Below are positions 8,466 to 14,025 of a stretch of 64,000 nt of DNA, in pieces. This DNA comes from Escherichia phage UGJNEcP1. The notes beneath the pieces were generated by a model that saw only the letters and a program-made list of their open reading frames with translations, did not search any database and was not told the origin of the DNA. Each line of letters starts with the position of its first letter. Positions within the stretch are counted from its first letter, which is position 1. Where the stretch lies: sequence record OV754623; one strand, written 5' to 3'. A program made the position numbers and the translations under genes.

Positions 8466-9593
8466 ATGGAAAAATTTATGGCTAAGTTTGGACAAGGATA
8501 CGTCCAAACGCCATTTTTATCGGAAAGCAATTCAGTACGATTTAAATTAAGCATAGCGGGCTCTTGCCCGCTATCAACATCTCCTGCTTATATTAAGTTC
8601 CAGGATAATCCACTTGGGTCTCAGGTTTTTTCCGTTGGATTAAACGTTCGTGTAATAAACCCTACAACAGGTACAGTAGTTGAATCTAAGACATATAATT
8701 TCTCTACTGAAAACGACACCACGTCAAGTGCATTTGTTACTTTCATGGACACATATGCTTCAAATTTTATATTTGCTCTTGTTACTAACGCTAAAACAAA
8801 CTTTCCACCTGAAGTTCTTGCATGGTTTAATAAAGCCGGAAGTTCTGCTATTCCATTAGCTCAACAAGTTTTAAATATAGTGGACATTTCTTATTCGGCA
8901 TTTTATATTTCTGGTAAGAATGCTATAGCACTAGAACATATTAAGTATAGTAATAAGAAAACTTCAACCGACTATAGTACACCACTTGATGTTGTGTATG
9001 ACACAATCGATGATATCGGTGCTACCGGCTTCCCTAGTCGTACGTATGAATCGTCAGACACATTTTTATCTGCCATTGGAGGTACTAATAATGAAATTAA
9101 AAGGATGCCTACAACATCCCTTATTACACCTCTCGCTGGGTATAAATTGAAGCCTGGAGATTTCCTTTATATGAAATTCCAACTAATGGCTGATGCCGAT
9201 TTGTTAGCACAAGGGACGACACGACTTTCTATTCGTTTCTTTAAATCTCCTTCTACTTCACCTATTTCATTTAAGGATACAAACTTTGATGGGGCTGCAG
9301 GTGAATGGAAGATATATGAAGACTACATAGAAATTCCTGCTGGTGCTGACGGGTTCACGATTTATTGTTATCGTACAGCTCCAGTCGGGCAAGGTGGATT
9401 AAGAAACGTTATATTCACTGAAGTATCATGTAATGGAAGCGTTTCAAAACCTGCCGAGTTTGGTATAAATGGTATTCGTGTAAATTATGTTTCAGAATCT
9501 TTAAGTGCCCCAGACATAATGACATTACCTACTCAATCTTCAACTGATACTGGTAAGGTATTTGGACAAGAATTTAAAGAAGCATCAGAATAA
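8466..9593 (+). CDS. 35: long tail fibre hinge connector gp35
   Basis: 375 aa (T4 gp35 372 aa); synteny. Confidence 0.85.
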   Translation: MEKFMAKFGQGYVQTPFLSESNSVRFKLSIAGSCPLSTSPAYIKFQDNPLGSQVFSVGLNVRVINPTTGTVVESKTYNFSTENDTTSSAFVTFMDTYASNFIFALVTNAKTNFPPEVLAWFNKAGSSAIPLAQQVLNIVDISYSAFYISGKNAIALEHIKYSNKKTSTDYSTPLDVVYDTIDDIGATGFPSRTYESSDTFLSAIGGTNNEIKRMPTTSLITPLAGYKLKPGDFLYMKFQLMADADLLAQGTTRLSIRFFKSPSTSPISFKDTNFDGAAGEWKIYEDYIEIPAGADGFTIYCYRTAPVGQGGLRNVIFTEVSCNGSVSKPAEFGINGIRVNYVSESLSAPDIMTLPTQSSTDTGKVFGQEFKEASE

Positions 9594-10329: not shown

Positions 10330-13300
10330 ATGGCTACATTAAAACAGATACAATTTAAAAGAAGCAAAGTGGCAGGAGTTAATCCTACTGCAGCACAATT
10401 AGCCGAAGGCGAATTAGCGATAAACTTAAAAGATCGAACTCTTTTTACTAAAGATGACCTCGGTAATATTATTAGCCTAGGCTTTGCTAAGGGTGGGGAT
10501 ATTAACGGTAATGTAACTCAAACTGGCGATTATTTACAAAACGGCACGTATAATCTCAATGGAAATCAGTTTGTTTATGCAGGAAAATACATTGAATTTT
10601 TACCTAAAACCACTGGAAATGGCGCTTGGGCTAACCAACATTCGAATAAAGCCCCTATCTTTACAGATTTAAGTTCAACTACTTCTGTTTCAGAATACCA
10701 TCCACTGATTAAACAACGCTATAAAGATGGAACTTTTTCTGCTGGTACATTAGTAAACGAAGGTAGTTTTAAATTCCATTATATTGATGAAACCGGGACT
10801 TCAAAATACTGGACTTTTAATCGAAACGGTAATTTTCAAGTTGATTCCGGAAGTTTATTAGTATCTAATGGATATTTAGTTACTCAAAGTAATATTGAAA
10901 CTAAAGCTGGTTCTTTAATTGGTCCTAAAGTTATTACCAAAAATATCAATGTGAGCACTAAATCTTGGGACACTAATATTGATACTGCATATGATTTAGT
11001 TTCATTACCGACTTGGCAGTATACTCCAACCGAAACAGATTTGGATACTAATGGTATAAACTACCTTCGTAAATTCCGCGGACATGTTTCTTCTGCTATT
11101 TTCCATGAAGTTGCTGATGCTCGTTCAGGTAAACCACAGAATATTTCGTATTGGACAGGACGTAATGCTGAAGTTTATCAATGGTCTTATACCACAGATG
11201 GGCGTATGTCTGTTGCTAATTCGATAGGTATAGGTCTTGCTGATGTTGGTGACCAAGGACGTTATCCATTGGTTTCGTTTGGTAAAGGTATTGCAATTGG
11301 TGACAATGATACTGGTATTAAATGGGTTCGTGACGGGGTTATCGATTTAGTTGCGAATGGTATTTCTGCCGGCACTATTCTTAATAACGGTATTAACAGT
11401 ACTAAAAAATTGATGGTTGGTTATAGTCGAGATTCTGGTTCTACTTGGGATTACCCAAATAACAACCAAGCAATGTTTACTGCGCGTACCGATGTTGATG
11501 GTAATAATAACGGTGACGGTCAGACTCATATCGGTTATAGTAGCAATGCCAAGATGTATCACTATTTCCGTGGCACTGGTCGTATGTCCGTTAGTATGGG
11601 TGATGGGCTTCTTGTTGAGCCTGGCATTTTAGATATTAAAACCAGTTCAAATAGGGTTGCTATTAGAGCAGATGGTACATTTGACTCAACCCAACGTATT
11701 TCAATGCGTACTGGGTTATTTTTATCAGGTGATGACAATACCAATGCTTTGACATTTAAAGCGCCTACAGGCGTTGACGGGACAAAAACCATTAACTGGG
11801 ATGCAGGTACTCGTAATGGTCAGAATAAAAATACTGTAACCATTAAAGCATGGGGTAACTCATTTAACGCTGAAAAGGGTAATAGAGAAACTGTATTTGA
11901 AGTATCAGATTCACAAGGTTATTATTTTTATGCTCAACGTACCAACCCGGCTTCTGGTGAAACAGTAGGTCCTGTTAACTTTAAATTTAACGGAACTGTC
12001 GAAACAGGCCATATCATAGGCCTTGGTAATATAAGTGCCTCCGGTACAGGTTCTTTTGGTGGCAATGTTACCATGACTAATGGCCTGTTTGTCCAAGGTG
12101 GTTCTTCTATTACAGGCCAAGTTAAAATTGGTGGAACAGCTGATGCATTAAGAATTTGGAATGCTGAATACGGTGCTATTTTCCGTCGTTCTGAAGATAA
12201 GCTTTATATTATTCCAACCCCGCAGAATGCTGGCGAATCAGGTGGTATTTCTAATTTACGTCCGTTCTATATTACATTAAGTACCGGTAAAGTTTCTATG
12301 GACCATGATGTAGATATCGGTGGTGGAATATTTAAAGTAGAAACTAGTGGAACAACAGCAGGGAAACGTATTACAGTTAATGCGGCGTCAGATGCTATTA
12401 GAATAAATGCCCCAACGCAAGAGTCTTCTAACTTTATTCAAGGACGTAAAGCAGATGTTACAAAATGGTATTTAGGTATTGGCGATGGCGGCAACGTCGT
12501 TCGTATGCATAGTTACACCTATTCACATGGTATTGCACTGAATTCTGATACTGTCGATATTACTAAACCATTAAAAGTTGGTAATGCTCAATTCGGTACT
12601 GATGGTAATATCACTGGTGGTTCTGGTAATTTTGCTAACTTGAATACCACAATAAATAACCTTAAGACAGATATTGTCTCAAGTTATCCAATTGGTGCTC
12701 CGATTCCTTGGCCTACTGATACACCTCCTGAAGGTTATGCCATAATGGAAGGCCAGACGTTTGATACTGACTTGTATCCTAAGTTAGCTGCGGTGTATCC
12801 TTCCGGCGCTCTGCCTGATATGCGCGGTCAAACTATCAAGGGTAAACCATCCGGGCGTGCTGTATTAAGTACAGAAGCAGACGGTGTTAAGTCACATAGC
12901 CATAGTGCAAGTGCGTCAAGCACGGATTTAGGTACTAAGACCACTTCTAGTTTTGATTACGGTAGCAAAACGACTTCAAGCTTTGATTATGGTACTAAAA
13001 CCAGTAATACTACTGGTAACCATAACCATACAGTGAGTGGTAATACTAGTGCCGCTGGTAATCACCAGCACTCACAGACAGGCCCAAGAGGACCTAGTAA
13101 CCAACCGACCGGGATATTTCCTAATGGGGCTACTCTAATTAGTGGGACTCAGGTTATTAGTTTTGGCCTAAGCAACGGTATCGTGCCTGGTACAAGCCAA
13201 TATATTGCAAAGTCGTCAACAGAAGGTAACCATACCCATAGTTGGTCAGGAACTACTAGCGCTACTGGTAACCATGCCCATACGGTAGGTATTGGTGCTC

Positions 13301-13443
13301 ATACCCATTCGGTAGGTATTGGTGCTCATTCTCATACTGTTGCAATTGGTTCCCATGGGCATACAATAACTGTAAATGCCACAGGAAATACAGAAAACAC
13401 TGTTAAAAACGTTGCTTTTAACTATATCGTTCGTTTAGCATAA
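10330..13443 (+). CDS. 37: long tail fibre distal subunit gp37 with His-x-His tip motifs
   Basis: 1037 aa (T4 gp37 1026 aa); C-terminal GNHTHSWSG...[23 protein letters not shown] HxH repeats. Confidence 0.95.
12931..13002 (+). repeat. tandem 30-nt direct repeat within gene 37 encoding (T)KTTSSFDYG twice
   Basis: actaagaccacttctagttttgattacggt followed by agcaaaacgacttcaagctttgattatggt; peptide [25 protein letters not shown]. Confidence 0.7.
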
Positions 13444-13449
13444 GGAGAA

Positions 13450-13463
13450 GGGACTTCGGTCCC
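13450..13463 (+). promoter_or_regulatory. UUCG-tetraloop hairpin between the gene 38 Shine-Dalgarno and AUG (also a possible gene 37 terminator)
   Basis: AAGGAG at 13442-13447, hairpin GGGAC-UUCG-GUCCC, then UUUUUAUAAU-AUG at 13474. Confidence 0.55.
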
Positions 13464-13473
13464 TTTTTATAAT

Positions 13474-14025
13474 ATGAAACTCTATCACTATTATTTTGAC
13501 ACTAAAGAATTTTACAAAGAAGAAAATTATAAACCATTAAAAGGCGTAGGATTTCCGGCTCATTCGACACCAAAAAAACCTTTAGACCCTAAAGAAGGCT
13601 ATGCTGTTATATTTGACGAACGCGAGCAAGAATGGGTATATGTTGAAGACCATCGTGGAAAAACAGTATGGACTTATGATAAGCAAAAAATTGTTATTGA
13701 CACTCCAGGTGCTCTTCAAAATGTTACTACAGAAGAACCTGGTGAATTTGACATTTGGACCGACGACGGGTGGAAGGAAGATGAAGCATATAAACGCGTA
13801 GTTCAACGTGATAAGAAAATTCATGAACTCTATAAATTATTCAGTGTTTTAAGTTCTCTTATTGACGCAGAGGTTGCTAATAGAGAAGAAAAACGAAAAT
13901 TTAAAGAGCTCAAAAAATTCTTTGCCCTTTTAGAAAAACATGAACATCTTGGCGGCGAATTCCCTAAATTCCCTGACCTTGAAAAAAAATCTATTGTCAA
14001 AGCGATTATAAATATCTTTAAGTAA
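13474..14025 (+). CDS. 38: tail fibre assembly protein gp38 (T4-type, short form)
   Basis: 183 aa as T4 gp38; no glycine-rich T2-type adhesin segments; synteny after 37. Confidence 0.85.
   Translation: MKLYHYYFDTKEFYKEENYKPLKGVGFPAHSTPKKPLDPKEGYAVIFDEREQEWVYVEDHRGKTVWTYDKQKIVIDTPGALQNVTTEEPGEFDIWTDDGWKEDEAYKRVVQRDKKIHELYKLFSVLSSLIDAEVANREEKRKFKELKKFFALLEKHEHLGGEFPKFPDLEKKSIVKAIINIFK
14007..14014 (+). promoter_or_regulatory. T4 late promoter TATAAATA for holin gene t
   Basis: exact TATAAATA inside the 3' end of gene 38, about 20 nt upstream of t AUG. Confidence 0.65.

Follow-up and report, generated by a model that had tools for sequence, protein, structure and literature searches.

Matched outgoing and returning repeat units in the probable receptor-binding tip of a T4-type long tail fibre

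The distal long tail fibre protein of phage T4, gp37, ends in a needle, domain D11 (residues 882-1009), which is divided into a stem (882-931 and 960-1009) and a tip (932-959) (PMC6957217). [quoted passage not shown] The chain doubles back at the head to give a six-stranded needle, and related fibres have six or seven di-His motifs and have been noted to vary in needle length (PMC12609058). In phages of the T2/T6 type, gp38 is an adhesin of about 260 amino acids (aa) with glycine-rich motifs, and T-even adhesins are known to exchange cassettes between conserved motifs (PMC3157838, citing Tetart 1996 and 1998).

We analyzed a window of 64,000 nucleotides from Escherichia phage UGJNEcP1 (sequence record OV754623), in which a + strand gene at 10330..13443 encodes a gp37 of 1037 aa, the distal subunit of the long tail fibre. 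This assignment is based on the open reading frame (ORF), on matches to the Pfam domains Collar, gp37_trimer and Gp34_trimer, on alignment of aa 759-1037 with the T4 gp37 tip, the sole structure of its kind to have been solved (PDB 2XGF, chain residues 2-242; phmmer E = 1.8e-88), and on near identity to a homologue in Escherichia phage UGJNEcP2, a Mosigvirus, where the protein carries the annotation long tail fibre distal subunit (99.6% aa identity, and 99.9% nucleotide identity across the 844 nt at the 3' end). Megablast with these 844 nt matched 216 phage records and, among the matches listed, 27 records span the whole tip in one ungapped piece. The gene order, gp35-gp36-gp37-gp38-t-asiA, is the same as in the T4 long tail fibre locus. 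On the 3' side, gp37 is followed by a 183-aa Caudo_TAP protein, by holin T and then by a 90-aa ORF on the opposite strand, in the position that asiA occupies in T4 and UGJNEcP2. The source is a Mosigvirus-like T-even phage. An earlier sequence-only reading had taken the region 12900-13390 for the gp37 tip, and both the gp36 and gp38 flanks and the 2XGF match bear this out. This region falls in the final 180 codons of gp37. On neither strand does an ORF of 60 aa or longer, other than gp37 itself, overlap it, which rules out an overlapping or antisense gene of that size.

The gene downstream of gp37 (gp38; 13474..14025, + strand) encodes a T4-type tail fibre assembly chaperone (PF02413, Caudo_TAP) in which 120 of the 183 residues are identical to T4 gp38 (66%). 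Its length, its Caudo_TAP type and this level of identity to the T4 chaperone exclude a T2/T6-type adhesin. A + strand hairpin with a UUCG loop (13445..13467; -15.7 kcal/mol, z = -4.55) separates the stop codon of gp37 from the start codon of gp38. Within 13442-13476, the hairpin GAGAAGGGAC-UUCG-GUCCCUUUUU is flanked by AAGGAG, directly past the gp37 stop codon, and by the gp38 ATG, 27 nt downstream. A terminator pattern scan made no call for this hairpin, and we rejected a terminator. T4 gene 38 has a split ribosome-binding site, in which a hairpin juxtaposes the Shine-Dalgarno sequence and the start codon; the arrangement between gp37 and gp38 resembles it and may be of the same kind. At the gp35 position, a 375-aa ORF (8466-9593), whose equivalent coding sequence in UGJNEcP2 is annotated as long tail fibre proximal connector, matches the Pfam family ILEI (interleukin-like EMT inducer) over aa 58-129 (E = 6e-7; 30.3 bits against a cutoff of 27), a surprising family name for a phage fibre protein.

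All parts of the tip are encoded on the + strand. The needle is directly preceded by a phage tail collar domain, the knob from which it emerges, with a core at aa 789-836 (12694..12837; PF07484, E = 1.9e-11, 44.2 bits against a cutoff of 24) that aligns with the D10 region of T4 (domain limits as in PMC6957217). The first HxH motif of the outgoing strand (A1, SHSHS; aa 856-858, 12895..12903) aligns with T4 H883/H885. It is followed by three tandem 10-aa units free of His (12925..13014), found by repeat search and as a 10-aa gap in T4, which has only two. At the DNA level these are 30-nt units at 12925-12954, 12955-12984 and 12985-13014, the third of which is degenerate. Farther out, in the distal outgoing stem, HxH motifs 2 and 3 (A2, aa 898-900; A3, aa 912-914; 13021..13071) are 14 aa apart and align with T4 H915/917 and H929/931. 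The head, or tip subdomain (aa 915-967; 13072..13230), comes next and is the predicted receptor-contacting part. In the distal returning stem, HxH motifs 4 and 5 (D1, aa 968-970; D2, aa 982-984; 13231..13281) are again 14 aa apart and align with T4 H966/968 and H980/982. Repeat search and a 9-aa gap in T4 define the last part, a returning-strand HxH array with 9-aa spacing (aa 982, 991, 1000 and 1009; 13273..13362). This array has three 27-nt intervals compared to two in T4, with 22/27 identity between units, and the extra unit reads VGIGAHTHS.

The sequence-only reading had described a tandem 10-residue TSSFDYG repeat encoded by a 30-nt direct repeat with synonymous divergence, and this description holds. 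The TSSFDYG peptide occurs at aa 872-878 and 882-888 (nt 12943-12963 and 12973-12993), and the middle of the three units corresponds to the duplication. The two good 30-nt copies are identical at 23 of 30 positions and differ by five synonymous codon changes and one Thr to Ser change; the duplication is therefore old rather than recent. The same reading had counted at least ten HxH motifs, which is too many: the whole protein contains exactly eight, at aa 856, 898, 912, 968, 982, 991, 1000 and 1009 (nt 12895-13362). The seven motif contexts that it listed are all present, and it omitted SHSHS at aa 856, which starts 5 nt before the region it had delimited. We also observed that the segments on either side of the head, 13015-13064 and 13225-13274, are direct repeats of each other (72% over 50 nt; 14/24 aa). 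As the A2-A3 and D1-D2 segments are direct repeats, the two head flanks are homologous, and this homology could also favour deletion or duplication of the head.

Relative to T4 gp37, the stem is longer on both strands. The needle HxH motifs of T4 are at residues 883, 915, 929, 966, 980, 989 and 998, giving spacings of 32, 14, 37, 14, 9 and 9, whereas the spacings in the protein described here are 42, 14, 56, 14, 9, 9 and 9. Each of the seven iron-binding HxH motifs of T4 has an HxH counterpart here in the alignment. The difference in the stem consists of an additional 10 aa in the outgoing strand, an extra FDYG unit, and an additional 9 aa in the returning strand, one more GAHxHxV unit, which is the source of the eighth HxH. 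Collar and stem are 57-70% identical to those of T4, the C-terminal 40 residues are nearly identical, and the two proteins share gene position and chaperone partner. By contrast, the head has 56 rather than 37 residues between its flanking HxH motifs and is only 13% identical. Being 19 aa longer and so divergent, it need not have the specificity of T4 for LPS and OmpC.

Because Gly, Ser, Thr and His abound in the region, we asked how far the HxH clustering and the peptide repeat could be a compositional coincidence, or low complexity without a specific role. In the last 182 aa, 16 of 16 His residues fall in the eight HxH pairs, and when this segment was shuffled 20,000 times the mean number of HxH motifs was 1.3, the maximum was 6 and no shuffle reached 8. 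The His columns are invariant across an alignment of 45 diverse homologues, and the solved structure that the region matches directly has iron bound by these residues (PMC6957217). The 2XGF match, the invariant columns and the shuffling together refute the coincidence reading, to which we give next to no credence.

The case for metal binding lies in the one-to-one alignment with the iron-binding residues of T4 and in the invariance of the His columns. By homology, the HxH motifs of this gp37 would bind iron, with eight metal sites predicted compared to seven in T4. The parallel to T4 iron coordination drawn by the sequence-only reading stands as far as homology and the seven aligned motifs go, and the iron role in this protein is a prediction from the alignment. 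The predicted eighth site would imply a slightly higher iron load per fibre, a marginal change for ideas about phage-bound iron. An AlphaFold2 monomer model built from the 45-sequence alignment was poor (mean pLDDT 57, pTM 0.28; pLDDT about 45-60 in the needle), as expected given an intertwined, metal-bound trimer. Foldseek with this model returned 2xgf_A as the top match (E = 4.5e-16), with a geometry that is meaningless (TM 0.32-0.39, rmsd 11.4). The alignment and the matched outgoing and returning modules imply a chain that would double back at the head within an intertwined trimer.

We surveyed 268 of roughly 2,300 database homologues, parsing HxH spacings in three sets and computing the number of 10-aa units as (first gap - 12)/10. 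Among 118 complete sequences from 90%-identity clusters, a first gap of 32 occurred with two 9-aa gaps in 74 and a first gap of 42 with three 9-aa gaps in 44; mixed states were absent from this set. Representatives of 50%-identity clusters (n = 128) showed the states 22/1 (1 sequence), 32/2 (79), 41-42/3 (40), 52/4 (5) and 62/5 (1), and two further representatives conform if an extra or lost HxH is allowed. Loci from IMG/VR added one 52/4 and two 32/2. Thus, about 265 homologues have as many 10-aa units as 9-aa HxH intervals, from 1/1 to 5/5, with one exception. The distal 14-aa modules are likewise matched (0/0, 1/1 or 2/2) in 244 of 246 sequences. Individual homologues depart from the common lengths: P0248 combines one proximal pair with two distal 14-aa pairs, and the number of proximal pairs is five in P0168 (spacing 62, then five of 9) and four in L009.

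Fitch parsimony on a UPGMA tree built from the collar and C-terminal flanks only required 34 changes for each of the two characters and 34 for the joint state. On this flank tree the 10-aa and 9-aa counts never separate, although the states are dispersed over it. The coupling could arise in part from exchange of whole needle cassettes among homologues that are related and highly mosaic, rather than from repeated independent double indels. Given that the unit numbers match, the TSSFDYG duplication and the additional HxH form the outgoing and returning halves of a single stem-lengthening module; the rule thereby accounts for the joint occurrence in this protein of an additional FDYG unit and an eighth HxH. 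Published contacts in T4, G921-F970 and H929-G964 (PMC6957217), would correspond to an antiparallel register of i + j about 1892, extrapolated from only these two contacts. Such a register would set T4 unit 893-902 against the 9-aa HxH unit around 998-990, and unit 903-912 against the one around 989-980. The matching of 10-aa and 9-aa units is the one modestly new point of this analysis: in the literature examined, di-His number and needle length variation are noted (PMC12609058), and we did not find the rule stated.

The exception, L001 (IMGVR_UViG_3300030021_000020), is a metagenome contig of 10.5 kb with three 10-aa units and two 9-aa intervals. At 1800-2310 its DNA is nearly that of the window sequence (3' end) minus one 27-nt unit. 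L001 may represent a real unmatched stem, or slippage product, or it may be an assembly error; accordingly, either the coupling is not absolute or the assembly of this contig is wrong.

This exception bears on the proposal, made by the sequence-only reading, that the repeats are a likely hotspot for host-range variation. In its strong form, the tandem repeats would act as a contingency-like hotspot, their number shifting readily by slippage or unequal crossing-over and altering host range. The range of one to five units across the family and the resemblance of L001 to the window sequence less one unit are in line with such a mechanism, as is a hypervariable region reported from nt 2665 of T4 gene 37 onward, which is where the repeat region starts (PMC4281060). 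Three observations count against it. The 30-nt copies descend from an old duplication, as their synonymous differences indicate. In Yersinia phage phiD1 and Escherichia phage mobillu, DNA identity to the window is 93-100% in the collar, the FDYG repeats, the 9-aa array and gp38, but falls to 35-45% in the head (about 13080-13200, between HxH motifs 3 and 4). Finally, changes by matched pairs only, in all but one of about 265 sequences, argue for structural constraint and not for free variation. We therefore regard a contingency-like hotspot as unlikely.

Laboratory host-range mutants of T4 gene 37, described by Tetart in 1996, are said to have duplicated a small C-terminal segment and thereby expanded their host range; second-hand accounts reportedly differ as to whether duplications, point mutations or recombinants were involved. 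A recent duplication of this type is ruled out here by the divergence of the copies in both arrays and by an arrangement common to many phages and prophages.

Since close relatives keep the repeats and differ in the head alone, the head, and not the repeats, is probably the short-term hotspot of host range. Repeat number, which the sequence-only reading had proposed to compare among related phages, does vary, but at family depth and, L001 excepted, solely in matched pairs; the claim of that reading for the repeats as a hotspot is mostly unsupported. Heads also occur in more than one stem context. The head type found here is present on 7-site prophage fibres (P0007-P0010), and another head type occurs on both 7-site and 8-site stems (P0017 compared with P0020-22). 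Together with the identity profile, this is the kind of cassette exchange known from T-even adhesins (PMC3157838).

This mosaic pattern raises the question of whether the GxHxH "His boxes" serve chiefly as short islands of DNA homology for recombination of head cassettes, a role that would add to, and not replace, a structural role in metal binding. Identity to phiD1 and mobillu drops at about 13020-13080, at A2/A3, and recovers at about 13200-13260, at D1/D2, so that both transitions fall at His boxes. Carriage of one head type by the 8-site stem of a T-even gp37 and the 7-site stem of an E. coli prophage, and the sharing of the tip among T-even, lambda Stf, P2-like and Felixounavirus fibres, point in the same direction. 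However, the His pairs are retained in the protein despite diverged DNA, with synonymous differences between copies and invariant His columns, which indicates selection on the protein, and in T4 loss of either H929 or H931 abolishes plaques (PMC6957217). On this evidence we consider the arguments for and against recombination as the chief role of the boxes to be evenly balanced.

We conclude that the region very probably encodes the tip of a long tail fibre of T4 type, a receptor-binding needle whose stem is a stack of matched modules and whose specificity lies in the head. The sequences themselves show the homology, the aligned motifs, the sites of the indels, the coupling across the family and the mosaicism; metal binding, the geometry of the trimer, pairing in space between 10-aa and 9-aa units and contact of the head with the receptor are inferences. 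As in the homologous T4 gp37, three chains would exit the collar, run outward to a small head and return to the collar, forming a six-stranded stem. Each HxH, contributed by three chains, would place six His residues around a single buried metal ion (iron in T4). In the proximal stem, a 10-aa outgoing unit without His (xDxGxKTTSSF, with the FDYG motif) would pair with a 9-aa returning GxHxHxVxI unit, giving three such pairs in this protein and two in T4. Receptor specificity would reside in the head, aa 915-967, which would be swapped as a cassette between the conserved His-box flanks, and folding of gp37 would rely on the downstream gp38 chaperone.

More tentatively, and with rather less than even confidence, we suggest that the stem is a length-adjustable ladder that changes only by matched 10-residue and 9-residue pairs, from one to five, and that needle length is a selectable trait. 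If so, selection on length might, for example, allow the tip to reach receptors through LPS, O-antigen or capsule of differing thickness, and unmatched stems such as that of L001 would be rare, poorly fit intermediates.

For annotation, these results fix the call as an adhesin tip, belonging to a long tail fibre of T4 type, and indicate that host specificity be sought in the head, at aa 915-967, and not in the repeats. For fibre engineering in phage therapy and diagnostics, head cassettes evidently fit either 7-site or 8-site stems. Stem units are best added or removed as matched 10-aa/9-aa pairs, and crossovers are best placed so that both halves of the stem derive from parents with equal unit number.

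Essentially the same protein is present in UGJNEcP2, HY126, SSE1, pEK20, slur03 and JM10 (Mosigvirus/Tequatrovirus), whose records annotate it as long tail fibre distal subunit and pass over the repeats without comment. The gp37 proteins of phiD1, mobillu and phage GiZh have the same 8-site stem (42, 14, x, 14, 9, 9, 9) with a different head cassette, leaving 55 or 37 residues between the flanking HxH motifs. Tips of the side tail fibres of lambdoid, P2-like and Mu-like prophages and of Felixounavirus fibres (lambda Stf; Bas63 LTF/STF) have the same collar, doubled-back HxH needle and head (PMC12609058). They follow the same unit-matching rule but differ in having unrelated N-terminal shafts and mostly six or seven HxH motifs, and some are without the distal 14-aa module pair. 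Several tip-bearing homologues (P0054, P0061, P0062, P0065, P0066 and P0068) are labelled terminase large subunit, tape measure protein or short-chain fatty acid transporter; such odd names probably reflect annotation errors or the fusion of gene calls within prophage regions. The distal fibre of T2/T6-type phages, in which gp37 is capped by the gp38 adhesin, is encoded at the same T-even locus, whereas here gp38 is a T4-type chaperone and gp37 bears its own tip. The tip described here is thus a genuine feature of an ordinary and known kind, nearly identical in public phage genomes.
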